In this document: positions 22,478 to 40,092 of the stretch, piece by piece
Layout: the number at the start of each line of letters is the position of its first letter
How positions within the stretch are numbered: the first letter of the stretch is position 1
From: Bacillota bacterium
GTDB lineage: Bacteria; Bacillota; Dethiobacteria; DTU022
DNA length: 64,000 nt
Direction: 5' to 3'
Assembly (NCBI GenBank): GCA_012799185.1
Contig: JAAZLS010000078.1
Span: 2,849-66,848, forward strand
The notes under the pieces: generated by a model
What the model saw: only the letters and a program-made list of their open reading frames with translations
What the model was told of the DNA's origin: nothing
Database searches by the model: none
Translations under genes and position numbers: made by a program

Positions 22478-22512
22478 ACTGACCCCTTCCTAGTCAACCG
22501 TCCCTTATATGC

Positions 22513-22522
22513 CGTAATTACG
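22513..22522 (+). promoter_or_regulatory. 10-bp perfect palindrome CGTAATTACG, candidate enhancer (UAS) for the sigma-54 promoter
   Basis: Perfect dyad about 65 bp upstream of the -24 element. Enhancer-binding proteins typically bind dyads 70-150 bp upstream. Confidence 0.25.
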
Positions 22523-22586
22523 TCACCCGTCCGCCGGTTTCCAGTCCAGAAGGGCGACCGGAGCCGGTTTACAGCCCCTTTTAACC

Positions 22587-22602
22587 TGGCATGCAACTTG
22601 CA
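22587..22602 (+). promoter_or_regulatory. Sigma-54 (RpoN) -24/-12 promoter
   Basis: TGGCATGcaacTTGCA matches the TGGCAC-N5-TTGCW consensus with correct GG/GC spacing. It is 55 bp upstream of the ATG at 22657 and in the same locus as a sigma-54 activator gene (27081..28544). Confidence 0.7.
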
Positions 22603-22656: not shown

Positions 22657-23712
22657 ATGGCTAATGGATGCCAGTTTTGGAAGGACTATGATTCCATCGG
22701 AGGCGCTGTCTCTTACTGTGAGCTGGCAGCTTTTAACCGCCCGGTTAACCCGGATTTTTTAGAACGGATCGGTTGCACAGCAGATAAAAGGAGGCAATGC
22801 TTGGGGGCAATGGAGCTAAATATCGGTACGGGGGCGGTCCCTACCCCCAAAGCCCCGGTATCTTGCGATCCCCCTCCCGAAATTGCCCGGACCTGCGTAG
22901 CCGTGGCTACCAACAAGGCATCTACCGGCGCCCCGGCGCTACAGGTATTATCCCTTCTGGCCGGGGCCTATATCGCCATGGGAGCGATCATGTTTACCAT
23001 TATCACCAATGATATCTCTTCAATCGTCGGTGATGGGCTCACCCGATTAATCGGCGGTATTGCATTCTCCCTGGGACTGATCCTAGTCGTCCTGGGGGGG
23101 GCGGAGCTCTTTACCGGAAACAACCTGCTGGTCACAGGATATCTAGAGAAAAAAGTGACCCTTAAACAGGTCTTATCCAACTGGGGTTGGGTGTACAGTT
23201 TCAACTTTATTGGTTCGCTGCTGTTGGCAGTCCTATTCTTTTATTCCGGTATCTGGAAAGCCAATGGGGGGGCAATCGGTCTAAGGGCGATCAATATCGC
23301 CTTTGCCAAGAGCTCTTTAACCTGGACTGAGGCCCTATTTAGAGGGATTCTCTGCAACTGGCTGGTCTGCCTGGCCGTCTGGCTATCCTTCGCCAGCAAG
23401 GATGCCATCGGTAAAATTGTTGGAATCATGATCCCCATCGCCGCCTTCGTAGCAGCCGGTTTTGAACACTCCGTGGCCAACATGTACTTTGTTCCGATGG
23501 GCATGTTTCTGAAAGGCCAGGCTTTTTTTGAAACCCTTCTCTCCCCGGCGATCCTGGAGGGATTGACCTGGCAGGCGTTCTTTATAAACAACCTGATTCC
23601 GGTTACCATCGGCAATTTGATCGGGGGAGTTCTATTTGTAGGCGTTTTTTATTGGAACGCTTACCTGCGCCCGGCCGCCCCCGGAAGAATGATTGCCAAC
23701 GGCCGGCTCTAG
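22657..23712 (+). CDS. FocA-like formate/nitrite transporter (FNT) family channel with ~90-aa N-terminal four-cysteine domain
   Basis: The C-terminal ~250 aa are unmistakably FNT (GAELFTGNNL, GILCNWLVCLAVWLSFASK, AAFVAAGFEHSVANMYFVPMG with the conserved His). AAAGGAGG RBS 7 nt before ATG 22657. The N-terminal 90 aa carry 4 Cys (C-x15-C-x18-C-x7-C) and are paralogous to the next gene. Confidence 0.85.
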   Translation: MANGCQFWKDYDSIGGAVSYCELAAFNRPVNPDFLERIGCTADKRRQCLGAMELNIGTGAVPTPKAPVSCDPPPEIARTCVAVATNKASTGAPALQVLSLLAGAYIAMGAIMFTIITNDISSIVGDGLTRLIGGIAFSLGLILVVLGGAELFTGNNLLVTGYLEKKVTLKQVLSNWGWVYSFNFIGSLLLAVLFFYSGIWKANGGAIGLRAINIAFAKSSLTWTEALFRGILCNWLVCLAVWLSFASKDAIGKIVGIMIPIAAFVAAGFEHSVANMYFVPMGMFLKGQAFFETLLSPAILEGLTWQAFFINNLIPVTIGNLIGGVLFVGVFYWNAYLRPAAPGRMIANGRL

Positions 23713-23744
23713 TCCTCTAGCATTTTTCAAAAGGAGGTAACCTG

Positions 23745-23972
23745 ATGGAGAAACTAGTAAAATGTAAGTACTGGAAGGAGTACCTGGGATTAAACGGGTG
23801 GGTCATGTTCTGCAGCGCCGGTGCCTTTGACCAGATTTTTACCCGCGAAGAGGCGGAAAAAATTGGCTGCACCGACCGGCAAAGGGCCAAGTGCCACCAT
23901 ATCATGGAGAGCAACCTGGGATTTGGCCTAGTCCCCGGGATCAAGGAGGCCATCGTTGAGGAGGCCAAGTAA
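23745..23972 (+). CDS. Small four-cysteine protein, paralog of the FNT N-terminal domain
   Basis: 75 aa, AAGGAGG RBS. Aligns without gaps to residues ~4-62 of the upstream FNT protein (CxxWK[DE]Y...G.V..C...AF.........E.IGCT....R..C...ME.N.G.G.VP), about 40% identity with all four Cys conserved. Confidence 0.6.
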   Translation: MEKLVKCKYWKEYLGLNGWVMFCSAGAFDQIFTREEAEKIGCTDRQRAKCHHIMESNLGFGLVPGIKEAIVEEAK

Positions 23973-24015
23973 CAGTTACCGGGCCGGGGACCCGCCGCCC
24001 GGGAAGAGATCGCCT

Positions 24016-24059
24016 AAAAAATCGGCCCCTACCCAATAACAGGGGGGTGCCGATTTTTT
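24016..24059 (+). terminator. Intrinsic terminator after the small Cys4 gene
   Basis: AAAAATCGGCCCCtacccaataacaGGGGGGTGCCGATTTTTTAC. GC stem with T-run. Confidence 0.55.
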
Positions 24060-24162
24060 ACAATAAAATAAATTGAGAAAAGGAGGAATCTGGGCCACAA
24101 TTACAGAATAAGCTACTGCCGGGCAACGCCTATTTTCCGATAGGAGGTCGGGTCTATTAGGG

Positions 24163-25311
24163 ATGTATATCAGTAAATTTGTATCCCCGGAAATTATATT
24201 TGGTAAGGGCTCCCTTAACCAGATAGGAGAGTGCTGCTTCCGGCTGGGGGCAACCAAGGTCTTTTTAGTAGCCGACCGGGGAATTATTGATTGCGGCTGG
24301 GTGGAGAAAGCCCTCCCCTACCTGGAAAACAGCCGCCTCCAATATTACACCTGGTCTAATTTTTCAGCCAACCCCAGGGATTTTGAGGTGGAAAAAGGGG
24401 CGCTCTTATATTCGGAAGAGGGATGCGATGCGGTACTGGCCATTGGTGGAGGAAGCGCCATCGACGCCGCCAAGGCCGTGGCTACCCTGGCTAGCAATGG
24501 AGGCCGGATCCAAGAGTACGAGGGGATAGACCTGATTACAAAGCCGTTACCCCCAATTATCGCCGTTCCCTCTACCGCCGGTTCCGGCTCCGAGGTATCC
24601 CAATTCTCCATCATTGCCGATAGTAAACGGAAGATTAAAATGACTATAATATCTAAATCCCTGGTTCCCGATATCGCCATCTCCGATCCGATCATCCTTT
24701 CTACCGTCAATAGCCGGTTGACCGCCCATACCGGGATGGAAGCCTTAAGCCATGCGATCGAGGCGTTTGTCTCCCTGGCTTCAACCGACCTCACCGATGT
24801 TCATGCCCTCCATGCGATTAAACTTATTGCCGGCAACCTGAGAGCCTCCGTAGCCAGCCAGGTTAATGAGGGGGCCAAGGTGGCCATGGCCAAGGCCAGC
24901 CTTCAAGCCGGACTAGCCTTTTCAAATGCTGTGCTAGGACTGGCCCATGCCATGTCCCACCAGGTGGGGGGCCTGCTAGATCTACCGATTGGCGAAACCA
25001 GCGCTATCTTACTGCCAGCGGTAATGCGCTTTAACCTTATCTCCTCCATCGATAAGTTTGCAGAGGTCTGCCGAGCCATGGGGATAAAGGATAACCAGAT
25101 GACCAATCGCCAGGCCGCCGAAAAAACTATCGATATGGTTCAACAGCTGGCCGAAGATGTGGGAATACCACCCGGCCTATCCCAGCTAGGTCTTTCGGAG
25201 GAGGTTATACCGGAACTAAGCCGGAACGCGATTAAGGATGCCTGTTTTATTACCAACCCCCGAGATGCCACGGTAGAAGATATCATGGAAATATTTCACC
25301 GGGCCTTTTAA
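24163..25311 (+). CDS. Iron-containing (group III) alcohol dehydrogenase
   Basis: GGGSAIDAAKA NAD-binding motif and the metal-binding His cluster (HAMSHQVGG). 382 aa, similar to 1,3-propanediol dehydrogenase and lactaldehyde reductase. Confidence 0.9.
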   Translation: MYISKFVSPEIIFGKGSLNQIGECCFRLGATKVFLVADRGIIDCGWVEKALPYLENSRLQYYTWSNFSANPRDFEVEKGALLYSEEGCDAVLAIGGGSAIDAAKAVATLASNGGRIQEYEGIDLITKPLPPIIAVPSTAGSGSEVSQFSIIADSKRKIKMTIISKSLVPDIAISDPIILSTVNSRLTAHTGMEALSHAIEAFVSLASTDLTDVHALHAIKLIAGNLRASVASQVNEGAKVAMAKASLQAGLAFSNAVLGLAHAMSHQVGGLLDLPIGETSAILLPAVMRFNLISSIDKFAEVCRAMGIKDNQMTNRQAAEKTIDMVQQLAEDVGIPPGLSQLGLSEEVIPELSRNAIKDACFITNPRDATVEDIMEIFHRAF

Positions 25312-25344: not shown

Positions 25345-27084
25345 ATGATTATTTCCAACAAAAAAGAGCTCATAGAGAAATTAACCGGTATTCATAGCTC
25401 TAAAAAATCCTACTATGTAGAACTTAAGAAAAAAATATCAGAGATCACCAGGCAAAATTTACAGCTGGATATTATTAACCAGCTTACCAGAAGTATCGGG
25501 GTCGATATGACCCTGGAACAGATCCTTAGAAATATTATTCCCCGCCTCCAGATCTTAATCTCCTTTGACTTGCTAAATTTATACATAATTGAACAGGATC
25601 GGCTGGCCGATCAGTCGACATTTTTGGTGGAGGACAATCATGATAACGGCGGAGCTACCATTAAGTACAGCCAACAGAGAAAGCACCCGGAGTTAAAGAA
25701 GCGCCGGCTCAGCACCGCCTTAAAGGAGGCTGTGGCCAAGAAAAAGCCGCTTCTCCGACAGCGCCGGAAAGAGGAAGATCCCGGAGAGGGGGAACAGGCA
25801 GGCCCCCCGGGAATTGTCTCCACCATCCTTATCCCGCTAACGGTAAAAAACAAGACCATTGGGGTCCTAGAACTGGCCAGCAAGTCCAATTTTCATGAAC
25901 GGGAGCTCCCCTTTTTATCCCAGGTTGCCGACCAGCTGGCGGTCTGCCTGGAAAATGTCCGTCTCTATAAAGAGGTGTGGCAACATAAGCAGGAATGGGA
26001 GACCACCTTCTCAGCTGTAACCGATCTCTTAATGTTTATTGATAACAACCATGAAATATCTAGGATTAATCGGGCTGCCCAGGAGTTCTTTGCCCGTCGG
26101 GAAAAAGATATTTTAGGTCAAAAATGCTACCGTCTGCTCTACGGCCGTGAGACAAAATGCAATCCCTGCCTGGCAGACCAGGTAATAAAATCCGGGCAGA
26201 CAGCCTACTTACAGTCGAGGACCCGCTACCATCGGGTGCTGGATATCTTTGCCTACCCGGCTTACACCGAGCGCAATGCTCCGCTGGGGGTAACCTATTA
26301 TGCCAAGGATGTAACCCGGTTTGTCGATTCAATAAAATTTGTATCCTTGGGGGAGATGTCGGCCGGGGTGTCCCATGAGCTAAATAGCCCCCTTACCGCC
26401 ATTGTTGGCAACTCCCAGTTGCTGCTTCGCGAGACCCCTTCCACCAGTCCCCACTACCAGCTAATTAAAGATATTAAATCCTGCGGGATGCGCTGCCAGC
26501 GGATAATCCAAAACCTGTTGACCTTCTCCCGCCAGGACGAATATTCATTTGAGGAGATTAACCTGAACCGGGTCGTAGAACAGGCCCTCTCCCTGGTCGC
26601 CTACCAGATAGAAAAAAATAAAATTAAAATATCTAAAAAACTGTACCCCTCTCTCCCCCCGGTGCTGGGCAATGCCCAGGGGCTGGAACAGATCGTGATC
26701 AATTTGATGCTAAACGCCAAAGATGCCATCGATGCCCAGGTTACGGGGAACGGTAATGGGAAAAAAGGGTTAATTGACATTAAAACCCGGGTCCAGCCGG
26801 ATAAATTTGTAGCGGTCGATATCATTGATACGGGCTGCGGCATTGACCCCTCCTCTATCCCCCATGTATTTAATCCTTTCTATACCACCAAGCGCACCGG
26901 GCAGGGGACCGGGCTGGGTCTCTCCGTAAGCTTGGGTATCGCCCAGGCACACCGGGGCTTTATCGATGTCGACAGTGTTCCCGGTAAGGGCAGCCGATTT
27001 AGCCTGATTATTCCCCTGGATGAACCGGAAACAGGAGAGGAGGAAGCGGTCGGTAAGGCCGCCGGGGGAGGTGAAGAAAAATGA
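25345..27084 (+). CDS. Cytoplasmic sensor histidine kinase (GAF-PAS-HisKA-HATPase)
   Basis: No TM segments. GAF-like region (ILIPLTVKNKTIGVLELAS...), PAS with Cys cluster (CYRLLYGRETKCNPC), H-box GEMSAGVSHELNSPLTAI, G-boxes DTGCGI and GTGLGLSVS. Confidence 0.85.
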   Translation: MIISNKKELIEKLTGIHSSKKSYYVELKKKISEITRQNLQLDIINQLTRSIGVDMTLEQILRNIIPRLQILISFDLLNLYIIEQDRLADQSTFLVEDNHDNGGATIKYSQQRKHPELKKRRLSTALKEAVAKKKPLLRQRRKEEDPGEGEQAGPPGIVSTILIPLTVKNKTIGVLELASKSNFHERELPFLSQVADQLAVCLENVRLYKEVWQHKQEWETTFSAVTDLLMFIDNNHEISRINRAAQEFFARREKDILGQKCYRLLYGRETKCNPCLADQVIKSGQTAYLQSRTRYHRVLDIFAYPAYTERNAPLGVTYYAKDVTRFVDSIKFVSLGEMSAGVSHELNSPLTAIVGNSQLLLRETPSTSPHYQLIKDIKSCGMRCQRIIQNLLTFSRQDEYSFEEINLNRVVEQALSLVAYQIEKNKIKISKKLYPSLPPVLGNAQGLEQIVINLMLNAKDAIDAQVTGNGNGKKGLIDIKTRVQPDKFVAVDIIDTGCGIDPSSIPHVFNPFYTTKRTGQGTGLGLSVSLGIAQAHRGFIDVDSVPGKGSRFSLIIPLDEPETGEEEAVGKAAGGGEEK

Positions 27085-28544
27085 TGACAAAGGCCCAATT
27101 TTTAGTGGTGGACGATGAACCGGAGGTCTGTAATTTTTTTGCATACCTGCTCAAAAGCAGGGGCGGCCGGGTAGAGACCGCCCATACGGGGAGAGAGGCC
27201 TACGCCCGGTTGAATCGTTTCAAATTTAATGTGGCCCTAGTTGATCTTAAGCTTCCCGACAGCGACGGCCTACAGATACTCAAAAAGATAAAAGAAAAAC
27301 AGCCGGAGTGCGAGGTCATCATCATTACCGGCTACTCCACGGTGAAATCGGCGGTAGAGGCGATACAGCTGGGTGCTTTCGATTACGTGGAGAAACCCTT
27401 TGCCGACATCGAAGAGATGGAAGATTTAATTAAAAAGGCGCTGAAGGCCCGGCAAGAGGTCGACAGGCTAAGCTCCCAGGAGGAGTACGGGTTTGTAGTC
27501 GGCCGTAATCCTAAAATGATCAGCCTGGTTACAGCCGCCCGCAAGATCGCCAAAAAGAATATCACCGTCCTGATCCAGGGCGAAACCGGTACCGGCAAAG
27601 AGGTCCTGGCCCGTTATATCCATGCAGTAAGCCACCGTAGCGATCGCCCCTTTTTGGGATTCAACTGCGGGGCATTTACAGAAACCCTCCTGGAAAGTGA
27701 ACTCTTTGGCCATGAAAAGGGGGCTTTCACCGGGGCCACCAGTAAAAAAAAGGGGATCTTTGAACTGGCGCATAAGGGAACCCTGTTCCTGGATGAGATC
27801 GACTCCGCCTCCCCGGCGATCCAGATAAAATTACTACGGATCCTGGAAACCGGGGAGCTATTGCGAGTCGGAGGGGAGGAGATCAGCAAGGTAGATGTGC
27901 GAGTAATCACTGCTACCAATGCGGACCTGGCCTGCAAGGTTGAAAATCGGACGTTCCGCGAGGACCTGTTCTATCGCCTGGATGTAGCCTCCCTGGTCAT
28001 TCCACCGCTAAGGAGGCGGGCAGAGGATATCCCCCTTTTCGTCCACTATTTCCTCTCCAAGGAGACAGGAGAATCGGAACCGACAAAACAGTTCACCGAT
28101 CAAGCCATGGAACTGCTCGTAAAATATCCCTGGCCCGGCAATATCCGGGAGCTGGCAAATACTGTCGCCCAGTCGGTACTATTGGCCAAGGGGCCCCGGA
28201 TCACGGTCTCGGACCTGCCGCCCAAGATGCAACCGCCCCGGGAAAAAGAACCGGAACAATCCGTCGTAGAGCTACCCAAAGAGCCGGAACGTTGGCCGGA
28301 CCACCCCCACCAACAAGAGCTGCTACAGCTATCCCGCCGGTGGGAGGAACAGCTGCTAGAGATAGACCTGCGAAAAGGATTCAACTTTACCGGGTTCAAA
28401 GATGATTTTAAACACTGGAACCGGCATCTACTGTTGACAATCGTTAAACAGGCCCTAAAAACCACCTTTGGAAACCAGGTGAAGGCGGCCGAGCTGCTGG
28501 GCATTACCCCCCGGGCACTGCGCTACTATTTAAAAGAACAGTAG
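27081..28544 (+). CDS. Sigma-54-dependent response regulator (NtrC family enhancer-binding protein)
   Basis: Receiver domain (LVVDDE...VDLKLPDSDG), AAA+ sigma-54 interaction domain (GETGTGKEVLARYIH, ESELFGHEKGAFTGA GAFTGA motif), C-terminal Fis-type HTH (AAELLGITPRALRYYLK). Start overlaps the kinase stop (ATGA). Confidence 0.92.
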   Translation: MMTKAQFLVVDDEPEVCNFFAYLLKSRGGRVETAHTGREAYARLNRFKFNVALVDLKLPDSDGLQILKKIKEKQPECEVIIITGYSTVKSAVEAIQLGAFDYVEKPFADIEEMEDLIKKALKARQEVDRLSSQEEYGFVVGRNPKMISLVTAARKIAKKNITVLIQGETGTGKEVLARYIHAVSHRSDRPFLGFNCGAFTETLLESELFGHEKGAFTGATSKKKGIFELAHKGTLFLDEIDSASPAIQIKLLRILETGELLRVGGEEISKVDVRVITATNADLACKVENRTFREDLFYRLDVASLVIPPLRRRAEDIPLFVHYFLSKETGESEPTKQFTDQAMELLVKYPWPGNIRELANTVAQSVLLAKGPRITVSDLPPKMQPPREKEPEQSVVELPKEPERWPDHPHQQELLQLSRRWEEQLLEIDLRKGFNFTGFKDDFKHWNRHLLLTIVKQALKTTFGNQVKAAELLGITPRALRYYLKEQ

Positions 28545-28566: not shown

Positions 28567-29181
28567 CTACCGCCTTAAAAAAGGGTTCGTTTCCCTTTCC
28601 CGGCCAATGGTTGAGCTGGGGCCATGTCCCGGGTAAACCCTGGTTTCGCCAGGTAATACCATTAACCGGGAATGGATACTCTCGATCTGCTGCTCAAACG
28701 AGCCCTCGGGAAAGTCGGTGCGCCCGATGGAGCCGGCAAAGAGGGTATCCCCGGTAAAAACCACGCCGGGCCCGAGAAGGGAGATTCCCCCCTCGGTATG
28801 GCCGGGGGTTTCTAACACCTCCAACCGGAGGGTACCGAGCTCTATTAGATCCCCCTCCTTCACCAGCCAGTCCGGTTCCGGTTGCCTGGCAGTCCCTGTC
28901 GGTAACCGGAAGGAGGGATTTCGGTAAAGGGGCAAATCCTTTTCATGGAGACAAATTAAGGCCCCCGTAGACCCCTTAAGCGCCGAGTTGGCAGAAATAT
29001 GATCCAGGTGGGCATGGGTATTAATAATATACTTTACCTTTAACTTTAGCCGCCTAATCTCTAACATTATTTTTTTTCCCTCAGAGCCCGGATCGATCAC
29101 CGCCCCCTGGCCGGTCTCCGCACATCCCAACAGGTAGCAATTCGTGTCGAGCATCCCTACTACCAGGGATTTAAGGACCAT
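28567..29181 (-). CDS. MBL-fold metallo-hydrolase (glyoxalase II-like)
   Basis: HxHxDH motif (THAHLDHI), GloB-like N-terminus (LKSLVVGMLDTNCYLL). About 205 aa. Confidence 0.8.
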   Translation of the reverse strand: MVLKSLVVGMLDTNCYLLGCAETGQGAVIDPGSEGKKIMLEIRRLKLKVKYIINTHAHLDHISANSALKGSTGALICLHEKDLPLYRNPSFRLPTGTARQPEPDWLVKEGDLIELGTLRLEVLETPGHTEGGISLLGPGVVFTGDTLFAGSIGRTDFPEGSFEQQIESIHSRLMVLPGETRVYPGHGPSSTIGRERETNPFLRR

Positions 29182-29198
29182 TGCGCCGCTTCCTCCCA

Positions 29199-30320
29199 TC
29201 ATTTTGTATCTCCCAGTTCTACTGTAACCGTAACCGGGGTACCCCCCCTGTTTACCGTTATATCAATTCTTTCACCGGGATAGTAGTTCAACAGCGAGTC
29301 AAAGAGCTGGGCAGAGTAGTTTACCTCCCGCCCCTCCACCTTTACAATAACATCGCCCTCTTTTAATCCCCCGGCCTCGGCCGGGCTCCCTGCAAATACC
29401 TCGACCACGTAGACCCCTAAATCGGAGGGCATCCGCGTCTGCAGGGCATAATCTCTCACGGTTATGCCCAGTTGAGGCCGCTTGACCCGGCCGTAATCCC
29501 GCAGATCTTTGACCACCCGTTTTGCCGTATTGCTGGGAATGGCAAAACCGATCCCCTCGACGCCTACATCTTTGATCTTGGCCGAGTTGATTCCAATGAT
29601 CTCCCCCTCCAGGTTAACCAGGGGACCGCCGCTGTTACCGGCATTGATAGCGGCATCGGTCTGGATATAGGTATAAGAATAGTTGCTATCACGGAAGGTT
29701 ACCTGGCGCTCCACCGCACTGATAATTCCCCCGGTAGCAGTCTGCTGGAAATAGCGCAACGGGTTACCGATGGCAATCGCTGTTTCCCCCACTCTGGTCT
29801 TTGAAGAATCCCCCAGGGCCAGGGAGGGCAGTTGCTCCCGCTCGACCTTCAGCAAGGCTAAATCGGTTAACTCATCCTCCCCCACCAGTTCTGCCGTTAG
29901 GATCTCGGCATTTGAGAGGACGACGGCGATCTCATCGGCCCGGTTGACTACATGCTGATTAGTCACAATGTAACCATCGGCAGATATAATCGCCCCCGAT
30001 CCCGAGCCCTGTTCCTGGAGCATTTTTTGCCCTCCCCGGTATAGATAAAGGTAATTATTAACCCCCACCACCGCCGGCTTGGCTTTTTCTACTACCAGTG
30101 CGGCGGCATCACCACCGGATATCTCCACCCGGTTGACCACCGGTGGTGGAAACTCCGGCGTCCCCGGTTCCGTTCTCAGTCCATAATAACCGCTGAAAAA
30201 CCAGAATAGGGCCGCCCCAACAATGCCCCCTAGAACCCCGGTCAGCAACCAGGGTAAGTATGAACCCCGGGGACGGGGAGAATCCCGATACCCTTCATAA
30301 TAATCCATCCCTATTACCAC
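29199..30320 (-). CDS. htrA: HtrA/DegP family serine protease with PDZ domain
   Basis: N-terminal TM segment, catalytic triad region (TNQHVV, GNSGGPLVN), C-terminal PDZ. Confidence 0.9.
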   Translation of the reverse strand: MVIGMDYYEGYRDSPRPRGSYLPWLLTGVLGGIVGAALFWFFSGYYGLRTEPGTPEFPPPVVNRVEISGGDAAALVVEKAKPAVVGVNNYLYLYRGGQKMLQEQGSGSGAIISADGYIVTNQHVVNRADEIAVVLSNAEILTAELVGEDELTDLALLKVEREQLPSLALGDSSKTRVGETAIAIGNPLRYFQQTATGGIISAVERQVTFRDSNYSYTYIQTDAAINAGNSGGPLVNLEGEIIGINSAKIKDVGVEGIGFAIPSNTAKRVVKDLRDYGRVKRPQLGITVRDYALQTRMPSDLGVYVVEVFAGSPAEAGGLKEGDVIVKVEGREVNYSAQLFDSLLNYYPGERIDITVNRGGTPVTVTVELGDTK

Positions 30321-30390
30321 CTCCTAGGCTGAGAGCATCTTTTCTTATCAACATGAGTTTAACCCAACAGGATGGCGTTAGTAAAGATGT

Positions 30391-30993
30391 TTATGACAAA
30401 TGATGACAATCGTTAAAAAACCGCAGTTTAAATAATCTTTCTTCCGGGCGGTACTCCAAAACAGTGCAGGAGGCGGGAGCGGGAGAAAAGGGCCAGGGAT
30501 CCCGGGCCTTTAAACCGAGGCAGGTTGAGATAAAAGCATTGATAAACCGACCGTGGCTAACAAGGAGCACCCGGCCCCGGAGACCGACGGTGGCGAGCAG
30601 GGTGGCGAAAGCGTTCCGGGCCCGGACCATCAGTCGCCGTTTTCTTTCCGCACCGGGGATACCGGCCGGGAGCTGGTGGAGCCCCAACCGGGTATAACGG
30701 GCGACCACCGTCGCTCGGGTCAATCCTTCAATTGTGCCCCAGGAACATTCCCGCAATAGGGGCATCGGCCGGGCCTTAATATTTATTTCCCGGGAAATAA
30801 TGCTGGCCGTTTCCCAGGCCCGTTTTAGATCGCTGCTAAAGAACCAACCGGGGGGTTGGCTGTTTAGGCGCCGGGCCAACCGGATCGATTCCCACCTTCC
30901 CTGTACCGAGAGGGCGGTATTTCGTTGGCCCTGGAAACATTTCTCCAAATTGGCCCGGGTAGTACCGTGGCGAGCCAGCCAAAGTTCCATCAA
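30391..30993 (-). CDS. Histidine phosphatase family protein (phosphoglycerate mutase-like)
   Basis: RHG catalytic motif at the N-terminus (LARHGTTRAN). 200 aa. Confidence 0.8.
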   Translation of the reverse strand: MMELWLARHGTTRANLEKCFQGQRNTALSVQGRWESIRLARRLNSQPPGWFFSSDLKRAWETASIISREINIKARPMPLLRECSWGTIEGLTRATVVARYTRLGLHQLPAGIPGAERKRRLMVRARNAFATLLATVGLRGRVLLVSHGRFINAFISTCLGLKARDPWPFSPAPASCTVLEYRPEERLFKLRFFNDCHHLS

Positions 30994-32280
30994 TTAGCTG
31001 CTCTCCCCGGGGAGAGCAGGGAAACTGCTGCGGATACGCTTTAGCCGGGCCCCCAGGCGCGTTAGCTTGGCTTCAATATCTTCATACCCGCGATAAATCT
31101 GCCCCACCCCGCTTAAAATTGTCCTACCCTGGCCCATGAAGCCGCCTACTAACATGGCGGCACCGGCCCTTAAATCGGTGGCTTTTACCGGTGCCCCGGT
31201 AAGGGGGGGTCCCCCCTCAATGATCGCCGTCCGCCCCTCCACCTTGATCTGGGCCCCCATCCGCTTTAATTCATCTACGTGGTGGAACCTGGATTCAAAT
31301 ACATTTTCTGTAATGACGCTGGTCCCCTCCGCCGCGGTTAATAGGGTCATTGCCAGTGGCTGGAGATCGGTAGGGAAGCCGGGATAGACGAAGGTCTTAA
31401 TATCTACCGGTAATAGTTGGGGCCCCCGCTTAACCCTCACCCGATCGGCCTGTAGCTCGATTTCCGCCCCGGCCTCCCGGAGCTTGGCGGCTACCGCCTC
31501 CAGGTGCTTGGGAATAACCTCTTCGATCACAATTTCCCCGTCCGTTGCCACCGCCGCAATCATAAAAGAGCCCGCCTCTATCCGGTCGGGAATAATGGTA
31601 TGGTTGGCACTAAATAGGGGCCTCCCCCCCTTGATGCGAATTACGTCGGTACCGGCCCCCTTGATCGAGGCACCCATAGCACTTAAAAAGTTAGCCGCAT
31701 CCACTATTTCCGGCTCTTTGGAGGCATTTTCAATCGTCGTCTGGCCCTCCGCCGCCGTTGCCGCCAGCATCAGGTTAATCGTGGCTCCCACGCTTACCAC
31801 ATCCAGGTAGATATGGGCCGCCTTCAACTTTTCCGCTCTCAACTTAACCAGCCCGTGCTCGATCTCAATATCGGTCCCTAAAGCGGAAAATCCCTTTAAA
31901 TGTTGATCAATCGGGCGGGGCCCAAAATCGCACCCGCCGGGAATAGGTACCTCCGCCCGCCCAAACCGGGCCAGCAGGCTACCCATAAGGTAATAAGAGG
32001 CCCTTAATTTTTTTACCATGTCATAAGGAGGGGAATAACTTCTTAACCCCGGGGATCTAAGCTCAATTGAGTTTCGGCCCCGCCGGCGTATTGACGCTCC
32101 CAAATCCTCCAGGATGGCGATCAGTACCCGGACATCTGTAATATTGGGAAGATTATGTAGCTTAACCCTTTCCTTAGTCATAATCGCAGCCGCTAATATG
32201 GCTAGCGCTGCATTTTTAGAGCCACTTATTTTTACCCGACCATGTAATTTTTGACCGCCTTCAATTATTAGCTGTTCCAT
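30994..32280 (-). CDS. murA: UDP-N-acetylglucosamine 1-carboxyvinyltransferase
   Basis: MEQLIIEGGQKLHGRVKISGSKNAALAILAA, full-length EPSP-synthase fold. Start at ATG 32280 with a GGGAGGGG RBS; the listed ORF extends 15 codons further. Confidence 0.95.
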   Translation of the reverse strand: MEQLIIEGGQKLHGRVKISGSKNAALAILAAAIMTKERVKLHNLPNITDVRVLIAILEDLGASIRRRGRNSIELRSPGLRSYSPPYDMVKKLRASYYLMGSLLARFGRAEVPIPGGCDFGPRPIDQHLKGFSALGTDIEIEHGLVKLRAEKLKAAHIYLDVVSVGATINLMLAATAAEGQTTIENASKEPEIVDAANFLSAMGASIKGAGTDVIRIKGGRPLFSANHTIIPDRIEAGSFMIAAVATDGEIVIEEVIPKHLEAVAAKLREAGAEIELQADRVRVKRGPQLLPVDIKTFVYPGFPTDLQPLAMTLLTAAEGTSVITENVFESRFHHVDELKRMGAQIKVEGRTAIIEGGPPLTGAPVKATDLRAGAAMLVGGFMGQGRTILSGVGQIYRGYEDIEAKLTRLGARLKRIRSSFPALPGESS

Positions 32281-32296
32281 TAGCCCCTCCCGTAGT

Positions 32297-33175
32297 TTAA
32301 ATTTTAGATGATCTCTCTTCCCCATCTATATTCAATCCATGTTCCAAATGACCTGTAAAGGCATTTATATAGTAGATCTGCCGGTGATCAATTATAACCC
32401 GCCAGACCGGGGGGATATCCCACTGCTCAGCCTCGTATTCTTCTGAATAAAACCCCAAGTCAATCCGGGTAATCCACCGCTCCCGGTCAGCGGGCCCCAG
32501 CTCTTCTACCAGTTTTAATACCGCTTCCGCCGAAGAGATCATTTCCAGCGGATGCTCACCGGACTGTTTAAGAAGCTTTAGCCAAAGATATTCGATCGCA
32601 GTTAAGCGCTCCCCGGTTACGGTCACCCGGATAAAACTCGAGTATAACCCCGCCCCCCCAGCATCTTGAATATAAGTAATAATTCGCTCTCCCGGGATTT
32701 CCTCCTGTAACCGATCGAATTTCACCTGAAAAAAATTAAAATTATCCTGTAAAAAGGCTTCTACTCGCCCTTTTAGCGTCTCTTCCTTCGGCTCGGAAAG
32801 CTCCAGGGGAATTCCAGGGATATAATGGATTACTGTTCGCCCCCCGGGATAAAGGTGAACCTGCCTCCCGGCACAATGGTATATATCCGCCTCCTCTCCG
32901 GCAATGAAGGAATAGGTTTCATCGGCCGATGGGGTGCGATCGGCCAAGGAGGGGGCCACGGTGATAAATGTCCCCGTCCGTACCTCCCGGTCCAGGGGGA
33001 GGGCGAGCCTGTATCCGGCGTCTTCAATATGTTTTTCAATCTGCCGCAATTCTTTCACCGGCAGGCTGCCGGACTGGAGTCTTTTCAGATCGGGCAGAAA
33101 CAGGTTGTATATTAAAAAAAGGTTTAGGCTTAAAAAGGCCACGATTAAGGCGACCTTAGCCCGGCCGGTATTCAT
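32297..33175 (-). CDS. yycI: YycI (WalI)-like regulator of the WalK kinase
   Basis: About 290 aa with an N-terminal TM anchor. Occupies the yycI position directly downstream of the yycH-like gene with an ATGA overlap. Assigned by synteny and size only; sequence conservation in this family is weak. Confidence 0.45.
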   Translation of the reverse strand: MNTGRAKVALIVAFLSLNLFLIYNLFLPDLKRLQSGSLPVKELRQIEKHIEDAGYRLALPLDREVRTGTFITVAPSLADRTPSADETYSFIAGEEADIYHCAGRQVHLYPGGRTVIHYIPGIPLELSEPKEETLKGRVEAFLQDNFNFFQVKFDRLQEEIPGERIITYIQDAGGAGLYSSFIRVTVTGERLTAIEYLWLKLLKQSGEHPLEMISSAEAVLKLVEELGPADRERWITRIDLGFYSEEYEAEQWDIPPVWRVIIDHRQIYYINAFTGHLEHGLNIDGEERSSKI

Positions 33176-34506
33176 TGGTCACCCCCCTCGAACGGGGTCA
33201 GATCCTCGGCCTGTAGCAAAATTTGTTTCCCGTTAATTATTACTTGCCAGGCCGGCACGGCGACCGGTTGATAAGACGGACCGCCTTTAACGTAGTACAC
33301 CAGGTCTATCGCCTCTAGGGCCGGGGGGCTTGTTTCCCCATAGAGCCGGTCATAAAAATCGGTTGCCTCCTCTAATGCTGACGACCAGGAAGCAACTTGA
33401 TAAAGCCTTTCACCGAGCGAGCGAACCGTATAAACGAGGCGGCAATACTCTACCAAGCCGCTGCTGGTAAAGACCAGGGAGAGGGCTGGGTTGCTCCCCA
33501 CCAGGGGATAGCCTTTCCAGTAGTACTCCCAGCAAGCCCGGCCTACCCGGTAGCCATCTTCACTATGAATAATCAGCTGTTTCAGACGGAGCTCCGCCGG
33601 CCACCCCCCGTAAGAACAGATATATTTGTTACAGGCATTAAGAGCCGATAGGTAGGCAAGGGGGGTAAGACTTTTCTCCCGAATCGGATCGGAGAACTCC
33701 ATCCCCTTCTTTATACGCAACCCCTTGGTTCCATCCGTATAAATAACCGCCCCGGCCTTCTCCTGGATTTTACGCACCAGGTTGCGATCAACGAAAAATG
33801 CATCGACCAGGCTCTCCCGATCCAGATTTTCCTGTACTAGGACCAGCTCCGGCAATACTGGCGGTGATAGGGGAACAACCAACTCCTCCCCTCCGCTTAG
33901 CCGATCGGATAGCACGGTATCCGGCAACTCCGGGGCCAACAATATATAAGGGGTAGAATCCGCGAAGGCGGCCTCCCCGAACAGGGTGGCCAATCGACCG
34001 GGCAGCTTCAGGGCCATCGCATCGCCGCCAGATTTCTCCTGTAAAATTGCCCAGGACTCCTCTCCATCAAGCCACAGTTCTAACTTCGCCAACTCCCGAT
34101 AACGATCCTCTTGCAACCAGGGGGTACCCGCCCCCACCGGTAAGGGGGGATTAAACCAGATTTTTAGGCCGGCCCCGGTCTCTCCCAAGGATTCGCGGGC
34201 CCGGTACTCGTACTTGGTCAGGGCCTGCAAGGCCAGGGAAATCTCCTCCCAGGCCAAGTTAAAGTTTTCCTGCCCATAGCGCAACAGATAAAAACCGTCC
34301 CCATCCCCCGACTCAACCAGAATCCGCTCCGGGGTAATAGTATCCTCCAGGGGCCGGGGCAGTTCAAAGAAAACCTTTTCCGGCACTTTTTCATCGAGCG
34401 GCTCTACCTGGCGGGAGGGATGGTGGCCATACCAAAGCCGGTAGGTTAACAACAGGCTGGAGAAAACCAACAATGCCAACAAAAAAGTAGTTAACTTTTG
34501 TTTCAC
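33172..34506 (-). CDS. yycH: YycH (WalH)-like regulator of the WalK kinase
   Basis: About 445 aa with an N-terminal TM anchor, immediately downstream of walK. TAAGGAGG RBS 5 nt before GTG 34506; the listed ORF extends to 34596. Assigned by synteny and size. Confidence 0.45.
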   Translation of the reverse strand: MKQKLTTFLLALLVFSSLLLTYRLWYGHHPSRQVEPLDEKVPEKVFFELPRPLEDTITPERILVESGDGDGFYLLRYGQENFNLAWEEISLALQALTKYEYRARESLGETGAGLKIWFNPPLPVGAGTPWLQEDRYRELAKLELWLDGEESWAILQEKSGGDAMALKLPGRLATLFGEAAFADSTPYILLAPELPDTVLSDRLSGGEELVVPLSPPVLPELVLVQENLDRESLVDAFFVDRNLVRKIQEKAGAVIYTDGTKGLRIKKGMEFSDPIREKSLTPLAYLSALNACNKYICSYGGWPAELRLKQLIIHSEDGYRVGRACWEYYWKGYPLVGSNPALSLVFTSSGLVEYCRLVYTVRSLGERLYQVASWSSALEEATDFYDRLYGETSPPALEAIDLVYYVKGGPSYQPVAVPAWQVIINGKQILLQAEDLTPFEGGDQ

Positions 34507-34519
34507 CCCGGCCTCCTTA

Positions 34520-36289
34520 CTAAACCTGTACCGGAAGGGTAAACCAGATCGTTGTCCCTTCCCCCAATATGCTATCGGCCCCGATATCGCCGCCATGGGC
34601 CTCTACAATCTTACGGGCGATCGAGAGCCCGAGGCCGGTCCCCCCATAATCCCGGGATCGATTCTTCTCTACCCGGTAAAACCTTTCAAATAACCGGGGT
34701 AAATCTTCCCCCGGTATACCGATCCCGTTATCGGCAACAACTATCTTGACAAAACCCGGCTGCAACGATGCTTCAACCCGTACTTTTCCCGAAGGGGGAG
34801 TATAATGAACCGCATTATTAATAATATTATTGACCACCTGCATAACCCGGCGCCGATCCAGGGCCACCCTTGGTAGATGCCCGGGAAAATCCAGCAAGAT
34901 CTCGGGTAGGTTTTCCTGGCTCTGCTGGATATAGTCCACTGCCTCCCGGACCAGATCGGCCAGGCTTACCCGGACCCGGTGCAGCTCCACCTGCCGGGAA
35001 TCCAATAGGGAGAGAACCAATAAATCCTTAACAAGCCGGACCATACGATCGGTCTCTTTCTCCAGGACCTTTAGAAATCGATAGCGTAACTCCCGATCAC
35101 CGGTAGCCCCATCTAACAAGGCCTCCACGTAACTCTTGATCGTAGTCAAGGGGGTACGGAGCTCATGGGAGACATCGGCTACAAATTCCTGCTGGAGGCG
35201 AATCAACTCTTTCTCCTTGGTAACATCGTGAATAACAATCAGGGTTCCACCGATCTGCCCCTTTTCCTGTTGAAAGGGGGCCAGCTGAACCTGGTAGACC
35301 CCCGGTGGCTGCCGGCGAACCACCTCGAAATTAGCCGGCTCTCCCCGATTATCCAGTAGTCCATCAGCGGGGGAGCCCACAAATTGTTTCAGCCTCTCTA
35401 TTCCCAAACTCCCCGATTCCAGCCGGTCAACCGCCGGCGCGGCGATTATTTTCCGGGCAGCCGGATTAATATGAATCATATTGCCGTGGGAATCAAGGGC
35501 AATCACCCCATCGTTCATATAGTTAATTATGGCCTCAACCTTACTTTTTTCTGTAGATATCTCTTCCAGGTTTTGGCTTAAACGCGTGGAAAGATAATTA
35601 AAAGAACGGCCCAGCTGGCCAATCTCATCCCCGGATACAACCTGGATCTTCCGGGTAAAATCCCCCCGGGCCATTTTCTCCGCCGTTTTAGTAACCTCTA
35701 GAATCGGGGCAGTGATTGTACCGGTTAAAATTAAACCCAGGACCAGCCCGATAGCCAAAACAATTGTCGACCCGGTAATCAAGGTTAATTTAATCTGGTT
35801 TAGGGTACTATCCACGCTCTTTAAGGAGCCTCCCAGGTAAATCAAGCCGGTTGTGCTGCCCCGGCTGGCCAGTGGTACCGCCAGGTAGTAGCGCCTCTCC
35901 CGGGTAGACGGATCTGTTCTCACCACGCCGCTGGTAGTATTAGAGAGCGCCGCCATAACCTCCTCCCGGATTAACCGGCTGCCAATAACCTCCTGGCTGC
36001 CAGAGGAACCTACCACCTGGGCATTACTGTCTAGGACCATTATATCCATCTCCCAGAGGCCCCGGAGTTCCCTAGTCAGATGGGCAATATCTTCTGTGCT
36101 CCGCTCTTCTAACGGCCGGGGAGCGATAAAGGTTGAGATCAACTTGGCCTGGTTCTCCAGGTTCTCTTTATAGCTGTCCAGGTAATACCGCTCCAGATCC
36201 TGAACCAGATAAACCCCGATTAACTGCAATGTAAAAAGTAATAGAAGAGAGTAAATTAACACGATCTTCCACTGCAGGCTTTTAAGCAT
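34520..36289 (-). CDS. walK: Cell-wall homeostasis sensor histidine kinase WalK (YycG)
   Basis: Two TM helices flanking an extracytoplasmic domain, then HAMP, PAS, HisKA (ADVSHELRTPLTTI) and HATPase (GGTGLGLSIARKIVEAHGG). The start overlaps the walR stop. Confidence 0.85.
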   Translation of the reverse strand: MLKSLQWKIVLIYSLLLLFTLQLIGVYLVQDLERYYLDSYKENLENQAKLISTFIAPRPLEERSTEDIAHLTRELRGLWEMDIMVLDSNAQVVGSSGSQEVIGSRLIREEVMAALSNTTSGVVRTDPSTRERRYYLAVPLASRGSTTGLIYLGGSLKSVDSTLNQIKLTLITGSTIVLAIGLVLGLILTGTITAPILEVTKTAEKMARGDFTRKIQVVSGDEIGQLGRSFNYLSTRLSQNLEEISTEKSKVEAIINYMNDGVIALDSHGNMIHINPAARKIIAAPAVDRLESGSLGIERLKQFVGSPADGLLDNRGEPANFEVVRRQPPGVYQVQLAPFQQEKGQIGGTLIVIHDVTKEKELIRLQQEFVADVSHELRTPLTTIKSYVEALLDGATGDRELRYRFLKVLEKETDRMVRLVKDLLVLSLLDSRQVELHRVRVSLADLVREAVDYIQQSQENLPEILLDFPGHLPRVALDRRRVMQVVNNIINNAVHYTPPSGKVRVEASLQPGFVKIVVADNGIGIPGEDLPRLFERFYRVEKNRSRDYGGTGLGLSIARKIVEAHGGDIGADSILGEGTTIWFTLPVQV

Positions 36290-36983
36290 CGGGGCTCTCC
36301 TTAAAATAATAGCCAACCCCCCGCCGGGTATAGATATACACCGGCTCCGCCGGATCCGGTTCTATTTTTTCGCGAAGACGCCTCACGGTAACATCCACCG
36401 TCCGTTCGTCCAGCATGTAGTCGTAACCCCATACCTCATCGAGAAGTTGCTGCCGGCTAAACACGTGCCCCGGACGCCGCATCAGGTAGACCAGCAGCTC
36501 AAACTCCCGGTAGGTTAGATCAACCGATTGCCCGGAACGGAAAACCTCCATTCGATCAAAATCAACCGACAACAGGCCGCAGCGCAGCCGCTTTGATTGT
36601 TCCACCTTCGGCAGGGATACTTGGGAGCGCCGAAGGACAGCTTTTACCCGGGCCGCCACCTCCCGGGCACTAAAGGGCTTGGTCACATAATCATCGGCCC
36701 CCAACTCCAGCCCAAGAACCTTATCGATCTCCGTTTCCCGGGCCGAAAGCATAATAATGGGGACCTGTCTGGTAGTGCGAATCTCGCGGCATACCGTAAA
36801 GCCATCCTTCTTCGGCAGCATGATATCGAGGATAATCAGATCCGGCTGCTCTTTTGCAACCAGGTCCAGGGCCTCCGGACCATCAAAAGCCAGGATTACC
36901 TCGAATCCTTCTTTCTCAAGATTATATTTTAAAATTTCAGCAATCGGCCGCTCGTCATCTACAACTAGAATTTTCTCAGCCAT
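36282..36983 (-). CDS. walR: OmpR-family response regulator WalR (YycF)
   Basis: Very high similarity to B. subtilis WalR: KILVVDDERPIAEILKYNLEKEGFEV, LIILDIMLPKKDGFTVCREIR, winged-helix C-terminus. Confidence 0.9.
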   Translation of the reverse strand: MAEKILVVDDERPIAEILKYNLEKEGFEVILAFDGPEALDLVAKEQPDLIILDIMLPKKDGFTVCREIRTTRQVPIIMLSARETEIDKVLGLELGADDYVTKPFSAREVAARVKAVLRRSQVSLPKVEQSKRLRCGLLSVDFDRMEVFRSGQSVDLTYREFELLVYLMRRPGHVFSRQQLLDEVWGYDYMLDERTVDVTVRRLREKIEPDPAEPVYIYTRRGVGYYFKESPDA

Positions 36984-37077
36984 CTCGCCCGCCCATTCCT
37001 AACAATCATAATTATGTAATCTTTTCGCCCCGCTATTAAGGATCTCCTGCTGATACCGGTTGAAGCCGGTACAGAAG

Positions 37078-37104
37078 AAAGCCCTTTCGTTGAACGAAAG
37101 GGCT
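37078..37104. terminator. Bidirectional-type hairpin terminator between the M23 peptidase gene and the walR promoter region
   Basis: Perfect 9-bp stem GCCCTTTCG-ttgaa-CGAAAGGGC. On the minus strand it is followed by TTTCTTCTG. Confidence 0.5.
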
Positions 37105-37120
37105 CGCCGTAAAATTTATC

Positions 37121-38551: not shown

Positions 38552-38728
38552 TTACCTCCTTTACGGATGCCAAGAGGTTGCTAATAAAGACCTGGCCTGC
38601 CCAAGAATATTAAGCCTACTTCTGGTTCTTTCCGCCAAAATCCTGCCGTCGCTAATATTACTTTCCGATTACGGTTAGATCCCCTCCCGGCAGCTATTAT
38701 TAACCTGCCGAAGATTATTTTATGCACC

Positions 38729-40090: not shown

Positions 40091-40092
40091 CC

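Follow-up and report, generated by a model that had tools for sequence, protein, structure and literature searches.

The 64-kb stretch of DNA analyzed here (the window; contig JAAZLS010000078.1 of an uncultured Bacillota bacterium) encodes, at 22657..23972, a FocA-like channel of the FNT family whose N-terminus carries a small four-cysteine (4C) domain, followed by a gene for a free copy of the same domain. As far as databases and literature show, 4C is an independently folded Cys4(+Met) alpha/beta domain family of about 62 residues, without described relatives. The explanation that we favor for the locus, and to which we give about an even chance, is that a sigma-54-dependent operon produces a FocA-type formate channel together with a soluble partner, and that the 4C module controls the channel. 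The transcriptional part of this explanation is strongly supported. We infer contact between the two domain copies, gating by the module, and formate as the substrate; every functional statement on 4C is based on genomic context and conservation.

The four-cysteine domain and its two copies

The channel open reading frame (22657..23712, plus strand) encodes 351 amino acids counted from its ATG and has a ribosome-binding site (RBS), AAGGAGG, 7 nt upstream of the start. The small open reading frame on the same strand begins 32 nt past the channel stop codon and has an RBS of its own, AGGAGG; the spacing is 7 to 8 nt for both genes. We refer to the channel-borne domain as the F copy and to the free 75-residue protein as the S copy. 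When channel residues 1 to 90 were compared with the small protein by BLASTP with composition-based statistics, the two aligned without gaps, with 24 of 64 positions identical (38%; E value, 2e-17), and the stretch of the channel that aligned was its first 68 residues. An initial annotation of the window, made from the sequence alone, had proposed this gapless homology, and the comparison bears it out; because the E value was obtained under composition-based statistics, the likeness of the two copies is not compositional. The cysteine spacing, C-x15-C-x18-C-x7-C, is identical in both copies, exactly as the annotation had given it. In an alignment of 33 diverse relatives, all four cysteines and one methionine are invariant. 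In the numbering of the small protein, the invariant positions are C7, G18, C23, A27, C42, C50, M54, and G59, and G41, R47, and P64 are almost invariant.

To the explanation that the likeness arose by chance or from composition, or that the small open reading frame is not a gene, we give next to no credence. Besides the E value of the pairwise comparison, the small open reading frame is kept, with its own RBS, at 53 to 79% identity in about 49 species, which rules out a spurious gene. In addition, a profile built from 14 copies of the domain and searched exhaustively against 1.84 billion cluster representatives gave 46 matches at an E value of 1e-3 or below, and it drew family members only. 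Taken together, the pairwise E value, the profile search, and the conservation across species exclude chance or compositional likeness.

The 4C domain is rare. In a word-indexed search of 5.8 billion proteins, the small protein retrieved 12 clusters, all labeled hypothetical, and the channel N-terminus retrieved 3. The small protein of the window is identical to protein P0001, whose sole annotation is also hypothetical. The initial annotation could match the cysteine pattern to no recognized domain, and our searches led to the same result. Neither of the two 4C sequences of the window had a Pfam match at an E value of 10 or below, and their best NCBIfam values, 0.17 and 0.19, belonged to unrelated families. 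In ten 4C relatives, the Pfam and NCBIfam matches were confined to helix-turn-helix (HTH), FNT, or AAA parts. The domain profile retrieved nothing significant from all PDB sequences (best E value, 0.29), the structural model of 4C matched no fold among solved structures, zinc ribbons and treble clefs included, and in the literature we found no description of the 4C domain, of an FNT channel fused to it, or of the operon. Two findings had been named beforehand as grounds for giving up the claim, a match to a characterized family and a compositional origin of the likeness; neither was encountered.

The AlphaFold2 model of the small protein, made with the family alignment (predicted local distance difference test [pLDDT] score, 84; predicted template modeling score, 0.68), consists of a beta-hairpin (residues 10 to 23), short helices, and a long helix (residues 44 to 58). 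The model of the F copy, made from channel residues 1 to 110, has the same topology of a beta-hairpin and three helices, with pLDDT values of 85 to 91 over residues 11 to 60.

The F copy is as conserved as the channel body to which it is fused (median identity to the window protein, 72% versus 69%), and the corresponding value for the small protein is 61%. A neighbor-joining tree of 136 domains places the F copies of the main lineage in one clade and the S copies in another, and the internal branching of the two clades runs in parallel, which points to one old duplication after which both copies were retained. The F and S copies of locus L074, from a distant Clostridia metagenome-assembled genome (MAG), group together in the tree, which points to a separate duplication or to gene conversion there. 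Each of the two clades has a conserved surface motif, S-[IV]-G-G-x-V-S-Y-C-E-L-A-A-F-N-R-P-V-N-P-x-F-L in the F clade (including NRPVNPxFL) and G-L-N-G-W-V-M-F-C-S-A-G-A in the S clade (also written GLNGWVMFCSAGA).

The small 4C gene directly follows the first 4Cys-FNT gene in 45 of 48 homologous cases, the exceptions being L024, L069, and L066. The first gene of locus L024 is a small 4C gene, with the FNT gene downstream of it, and the domains of L024 and L069 group with the clade of second copies; the FNT genes of these two loci appear to be second copies whose first copy lies off the contig. Such a second 4Cys-FNT gene after the small gene is present in some genomes (L009, 8517..9590; also L019, L023, L024, and L029). 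Another protein, P0016 (L078, 123..644, on a 1.7-kb contig), holds an F-like and an S-like 4Cys open reading frame in one 173-residue reading frame whose junction carries an RBS-like AAAGGAG and an ATG. This could be a genuine tandem fusion, or it could be a pair of neighboring genes with a lost stop codon. P0016 was considered as "Rosetta stone" proof that F and S copies pair; with a single short contig and an RBS-like sequence plus ATG at the junction, we downgraded it to a hint.

The channel and the conserved five-gene module

The channel body matches PF01226 over residues 75 to 333 (E value, 6.5e-81; 271.7 bits versus a cutoff of 34.6; profile positions 1 to 239 of 240) and exceeds the cutoff of TIGR00790 (252.4 versus 232.3 bits). 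Its pore motifs, GAELFTGNNL and GFEHSVANMYF, align with their FocA equivalents (T91 and H209 in Escherichia coli), and T153, H271, and K218 of the channel are invariant in 32 full-length homologs. The alignment with solved FocA starts at channel residue 73 (PPEIA...), which corresponds to FocA residue 11; the FocA-type N-terminal helix is retained, and the 4C domain is added in front of it. The assignment to the FNT family with its pore threonine and histidine, made in the initial annotation, thus stood, and its estimate of about 90 residues for the N-terminal extension has to be lowered to about 72 (domain, residues 1 to 62; linker, residues 63 to 72). Among 41 homologs the linker has a length of about 5 to 35 residues, and in the window protein its pLDDT is 50 to 60. 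A fifth cysteine, before the PPPE motif, was considered as part of the cysteine site and rejected as not required, since it is absent from L074 and several other loci.

The best solved relatives of the channel are FocA structures (3kly, E value 1e-53; 3q7k; 3kcu), and its scores lie below the FocA equivalog cutoffs (TIGR04060, 249.7 versus 290.1 bits; NF008069, 198.7 versus 440 bits). Formate is therefore a likely, not an established, substrate. This raises the possibility that the channel carries another small monovalent anion (acetate, lactate, another alcohol- or aldehyde-derived acid, nitrite, hydrosulfide, or bicarbonate) tied to the signal of the alcohol dehydrogenase-like protein encoded downstream. 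Members of the FNT family are known that conduct nitrite, HS-, lactate, or bicarbonate, LCIA aligns with the channel at an E value of 5.6e-45, and both the low equivalog scores and the alcohol dehydrogenase-like protein in the control system would fit such a substrate. However, the FocA structures are clearly the best matches, with the hydrosulfide channel HSC (1e-34) and NirC (5e-24) trailing, the other genomic link of the 4C domain is to formate dehydrogenase (FDH), and with the lifestyle presumed for the hosts, formate is a key carrier of electrons between species. We consider a substrate other than formate rather improbable.

In E. coli, FocA's N-terminal helix gates the channel, is required for formate translocation, and is the docking site of PflB (PMC11841067). 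No linkage to pflB was found at the window gene or at the homologous loci; the neighbors in the window are a PBP1A gene upstream and the small 4C gene and a gene for an iron alcohol dehydrogenase (Fe-ADH)-like protein downstream.

The sigma-54 promoter upstream of the channel gene is the only exact match to TGGCAY-N5-TTGCW in the window. At 46 of 54 homologous starts, an equivalent TGGCAC-N5-TTGCA precedes the first 4Cys-FNT gene by 59 to 90 nt, and the misses are second copies or contig ends. An imperfect palindrome further upstream recurs in 34 of 48 homologous loci, against 2.6 expected from shuffled sequences, at 67 to 168 nt from the promoter; the count used a 170-nt extraction window, and several misses fell beyond its edge. 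At up to 1 mismatch, the 64-kb stretch holds one copy of the palindrome only. Loci L020, L031, L045, and L058 contain two or three copies each. The palindrome and the -24/-12 promoter together are a classical enhancer-dependent layout. Downstream of the small gene, the terminator hairpin has a folding energy of -24 kcal/mol (z = -4.3; none of 200 shuffles folds as well) and a U-run, and a consensus scan flags it on the minus strand too. These signals support the prediction of a sigma-54-driven, terminator-bounded transcription unit of two genes. In this respect the initial annotation, which had described the pair as its own transcription unit, was right as to promoter and hairpin; it had overlooked the enhancer palindrome, the larger five-gene module, and the contexts of the domain outside FNT channels.

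The module was delimited by a locus scan with one genome per species, which gave 54 loci, all from uncultured Bacillota MAGs labeled "Syntrophomonadaceae," Dethiobacteria, or DTU022, and gene order was derived by mapping the window proteins and the domain profile onto these loci. In about 45 species-level loci the order is 4C-FNT, small 4C, in some a second 4C-FNT, then the Fe-ADH-like gene, a GAF/PAS histidine kinase gene, and a sigma-54 response regulator gene (Table 1), and the flanks of the module vary between lineages. In the distant L074, the same five genes occur in a different arrangement, ADH-HK-RR-[4C-FNT]-[small 4C] (HK, histidine kinase; RR, response regulator). This linkage outlasts rearrangement, which argues that the five genes form a functional unit. 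Another distant MAG (L072) has the pair of 4C-FNT and small 4C genes without the three regulatory genes. At L066 (3500..15446; MAG JAAZPQ01, in the literature a proposed syntrophic acetate oxidizer), a 4Cys-FNT gene is accompanied by neither the small gene nor the regulatory trio, and its promoter match is weaker; genes for an [FeFe]-hydrogenase and an NADH-linked subunit lie upstream of it, and an FdhD gene lies 3.6 kb downstream.

Table 1. Coordinates of the channel-small protein pair, its control elements, and the downstream regulatory genes in the window
Feature	Position	Strand	Basis or remarks
Putative enhancer (upstream activating sequence), imperfect palindrome TGCCGTAATTACGTCA	22510..22525	.	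Consensus TGACG-N6-CGTCA
Sigma-54 (-24/-12) promoter TGGCATGCAACTTGCA	22587..22602	+	Exact TGGCAY-N5-TTGCW
N-terminal 4C domain of channel, F-type copy, residues 1-62	22657..22842	+	C5, C21, C40, C48, M52
Pro/Ala-rich linker, residues 63-72	22843..22872	+	Ends in a mostly conserved Cys before the PPPE motif
FocA-like FNT channel body, residues 73-351 plus stop codon	22873..23712	+	PF01226, TIGR00790, FocA alignment
Free 75-aa 4C protein, S-type paralog	23745..23972	+	C7, C23, C42, C50, M54
Intrinsic terminator hairpin, flanked by A-run and U-run	24015..24060	+	RNA fold; could act both ways
Degenerate Fe-ADH-like protein, ErcA-like, probably sensory/regulatory	24163..25311	+	NF041833, ligand changes
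Cytoplasmic GAF/PAS histidine kinase	25345..27084	+	Pfam GAF, PAS_4, HisKA, HATPase_c (identical gene, L001); best NCBIfam model, AtoS
NtrC/AtoC-type response regulator	27081..28544	+	Pfam Response_reg, Sigma54_activat, HTH_8; NCBIfam AtoC, E value 1e-122

The top NCBIfam model for the Fe-ADH-like protein is NF041833, ErcA ("alcohol dehydrogenase-like regulatory protein"), which it matches over its full length with 467.5 bits, below the cutoff of 550. All five solved Fe-ADHs used for comparison have the metal-ligand Asp and the last ligand His where the window protein has Glu (GMEALSH) and Ile (PIG for PHG), and the canonical Asp-His-His-His set of catalytic Fe-ADHs (PF00465) is not present. 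The two changes are fixed in 43 of 43 and in 39 of 40 lineage homologs, respectively. This suggests that the protein is a noncatalytic, sensory, ErcA-like protein. The ErcA protein of Pseudomonas is a cytoplasmic Fe-ADH that is encoded beside the kinase ErcS and is implicated in regulation, not in catabolism (PMC12997753). None of 44 Fe-ADH genes has a sigma-54 promoter upstream, and a separate promoter of this type for the Fe-ADH gene is thereby ruled out.

The kinase gene starts 33 nt after the Fe-ADH-like gene, and this pairing is kept in about 37 loci. In the PAS domain of the kinase (around residues 255 to 275), C-Y-x-L-[FL]-Y-G-R-x3-C-x-P-C is present in 37 of 37 homologs, and L074 keeps C-x11-C-x2-C; this motif may form a second metal or redox site in the signaling chain. 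Linkage of the response regulator gene to the 4Cys-FNT pair holds in about 36 loci, and also in L074 with its different gene order. The response regulator is presumed to be the activator of the promoter at 22587, and we read the Fe-ADH-like protein, the kinase, and the regulator as a sensory apparatus that almost certainly governs this promoter.

The source species recurs in biogas-reactor metagenomes with identical gene order. Its lineage, Dethiobacteria/DTU022, is regarded as consisting of syntrophic acetate oxidizers that use the Wood-Ljungdahl pathway (PMC11932165). Beyond the module, at 28567..42000, the window encodes a metallo-beta-lactamase-fold hydrolase, an HtrA-like protease, a histidine phosphatase, an EPSP-synthase-family (PF00275) enzyme, YycI, YycH, a WalK/WalR-like two-component system, an M23 peptidase, DnaB, and a Lon-like protease. 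The module thus sits among housekeeping genes, and a chromosomal location fits better than a mobile one.

Contexts outside channels and the proposed role of the domain

The 4C domain also occurs in proteins with DNA-binding domains, in 4C-HTH_17 fusions (P0018 and P0059-61) and in an HTH_3(XRE)-4C fusion (P0041). Genes of the XRE-4C type were found on three independent contigs (L080, 6001..10330; L079, 528..1621; L081, 879..1728), each about 24 nt upstream of an FDH operon, and the regulators of the three contigs are 65 to 68% identical. In the operon, the gene for an FdhF-type molybdopterin subunit, which has TGA in frame at the position of the selenocysteine, is followed by genes for an Fer4_22 subunit and an FAD/NAD-binding subunit; the best solved relative of the FdhF-type subunit is FdhF of the hydrogen-dependent CO2 reductase (7qv7; E value, 8e-69). 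The layout of the XRE-4C proteins is the architecture expected of the input domain of a one-component regulator, and the FDH operons are a second link of the domain to formate metabolism, independent of the channel.

Other members stand alone. Desaci_2414 of Desulfosporosinus acidiphilus SJ4 (L070, 7001..7252) is a 4C protein with no FNT gene nearby, adjoining a gene for a GntR/MocR-type regulator and aminotransferase genes. Among the family members found, it alone comes from a cultured organism with a complete sequence, and it could be a tractable source for biochemistry. At L068 (922..3053), genes for a DUF432 protein and an MscS-like mechanosensitive channel come after a stand-alone F-like 4Cys gene, and at L062, an S-like copy follows a gene for a major facilitator superfamily (MFS) transporter. 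The domain may therefore be associated with other membrane transport proteins too. In another context, a stand-alone copy lies near a gene for aldehyde:ferredoxin oxidoreductase (AOR). The 199-residue protein P0031, in which an F-type 4Cys domain is joined to the C-terminal half of a sigma-54 AAA+ domain, was rejected as a genuine architecture: because the AAA part starts in mid-domain, it is probably either an assembly chimera or the product of a deletion between the channel and regulator genes. The contexts outside FNT channels shift the likely role of 4C from a channel-specific plug to a general sensor or interaction module tied to formate metabolism.

According to the explanation that we favor, the ErcA-like Fe-ADH, the GAF/PAS kinase, and the NtrC-type regulator would sense an intracellular cue, and the phosphorylated regulator would bind TGACG-N6-CGTCA and activate the -24/-12 promoter. 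The 4C domain, predicted to fold independently, would probably bind a metal or an Fe-S cluster. A flexible Pro/Ala linker would tie it to the cytoplasmic N-terminal helix, the gate of FocA in E. coli, and a pentamer would present five such modules at the cytoplasmic mouth of the channel. The cotranslated free paralog would bind the tethered domains or compete with them, and channel opening would follow the signal read by the Cys4 site, whether that is redox poise, a metal, or formate itself. The same module also forms the part of XRE and HTH_17 regulators that does not bind DNA, and in syntrophic anaerobes it may coordinate the production and export of formate. Binding of a metal or an Fe-S cluster by the four cysteines is probable in view of their absolute invariance, of the cytoplasmic location of the domain, and of the strictly anaerobic hosts. 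For a lineage regarded as syntrophic acetate oxidizers (PMC11932165), regulated export of formate would be physiologically sensible.

Several observations weigh against this explanation. The Fe-ADH of L074 keeps the canonical metal ligands, which means that the reading as a degenerate sensor fails for some versions of the module. The channel scores below the FocA equivalog cutoffs, and the sole hint of a physical association between F and S copies is P0016, possibly just two adjacent genes. In some loci, two residues otherwise kept in the domain are changed in the second 4C-FNT copy, the Trp (W to L) and the invariant Met (M to V, T, or G), which suggests that this copy has diverged or is degenerate. 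Finally, several stand-alone members occur in contexts unrelated to formate (MocR-type regulator, MFS, DUF432/MscS, and AOR).

It is possible that 4C is a new class of Fe-S or metal sensor which both gates the formate channel directly, with the free paralog modulating, and switches selenocysteine FDH operons via XRE/HTH regulators. We propose this wider role only tentatively.

Alternatively, 4C could be merely structural, for example a zinc-stabilized oligomerization module that dimerizes HTH regulators and, with the free paralog, forms a static cytoplasmic cap or scaffold on the channel. XRE regulators commonly have a C-terminal dimerization domain, and 4C occupies that place in P0041; an invariant Cys4 set in a small domain is typical of structural zinc sites; and the F-like and S-like open reading frames joined on one contig would fit a scaffold. 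On the other hand, the cysteines lie far apart (x15, x18, x7), form no CxxC knuckle, and are accompanied by an invariant Met, unlike those of common structural zinc sites, and the fold matches neither a zinc ribbon nor a treble clef. That the domain is tightly coupled to an operon under signal control, and to FDH operons, suggests instead that its role is regulatory. We think a purely structural role unlikely.

A docking function has also to be considered, in which 4C would be an adaptor that brings a formate-making or formate-using enzyme (FDH, formyl-tetrahydrofolate synthetase, or similar) to the channel mouth, and the free paralog would be the matching adaptor. The position of the domain on the helix that docks PflB in E. 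coli, the association of the 4C family with FDH operons, and the lack of pflB beside the focA-like gene of the window are all in keeping with this. However, the conserved module encodes no FDH or other candidate partner, and the fusions to DNA-binding domains are hard to explain for a pure enzyme adaptor. We regard such an adaptor as improbable.

The gating of FNT channels and the matching of formate efflux to metabolism are still debated; the answer of E. coli involves FocA's N-terminal helix and a soluble enzyme partner. The operon described here is a natural experiment on the same problem, with a folded Cys-rich domain on the gating helix, a coexpressed free paralog, and dedicated signal transduction. 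The hosts are uncultured, presumed syntrophic acetate oxidizers of biogas reactors, and formate export is central to their interspecies electron transfer. If the 4C domain senses redox state, a metal, or formate, the field would gain a sensor fold not seen before, a way in which formate release is regulated, and possibly a compact part for engineering that responds to formate or redox state. If it both gates the channel directly and switches FDH operons, one module would couple the production and export of formate to redox or formate status in syntrophic anaerobes, and the channel would be the first FNT channel from nature in which a domain for ligand or redox gating is built in. If it is merely structural, 4C would still be a new domain family without a known fold.

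Comparison with known systems

The FNT channel family, sigma-54 control, and ErcA-like sensing are already known. In the databases and literature searched, there is no description of the 4C domain, of its fusion to an FNT gate, of its paired free paralog, or of the FDH-linked XRE-4C regulators.

The window channel and enterobacterial FocA share the PF01226/TIGR00790 pentameric-channel family, the pore Thr, His, and Lys, and the cytoplasmic N-terminal helix, and FocA proteins are the best solved relatives. Only the window channel has a Cys4 domain of about 62 residues and a Pro/Ala linker before this helix, a free cotranscribed paralog of the domain, and no pflB neighbor. In E. coli, FocA expression is under FNR/ArcA control, whereas the window operon is under the control of sigma-54 and a two-component system.

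With ErcA/ErcS of Pseudomonas aeruginosa, a system of ethanol oxidation, the module shares an Fe-ADH-like gene immediately upstream of a sensor kinase gene, and ErcA is the best NCBIfam model of its Fe-ADH-like protein. It differs in that this protein lies below the ErcA cutoff and has two metal ligands replaced, the kinase is a soluble GAF/PAS protein, and the output is an NtrC-type sigma-54 activator. The target in the window is a channel operon, whereas the targets of ErcA/ErcS are pyrroloquinoline quinone alcohol dehydrogenase genes.

Like WhiB-like, FNR/NreB-type, and RsrA-type Cys4 domains, 4C is small and cytoplasmic, has four invariant cysteines, and occurs alone or on DNA-binding or effector domains, a distribution to be expected of a sensor module. 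This likeness is by analogy only, and the spacing of the 4C cysteines (x15, x18, x7) differs from theirs.

The response regulator shares with the NtrC, AtoC, and ZraR activators a receiver, an AAA+ sigma-54 activation domain, and HTH_8, together with an enhancer located about 70 to 170 nt upstream of a -24/-12 promoter. Sigma-54 control of formate-related genes is also a feature of the FhlA regulon of E. coli (mentioned in PMC6615313). The regulator encoded in the window is controlled by phosphorylation, whereas FhlA is a one-component, formate-binding GAF activator.

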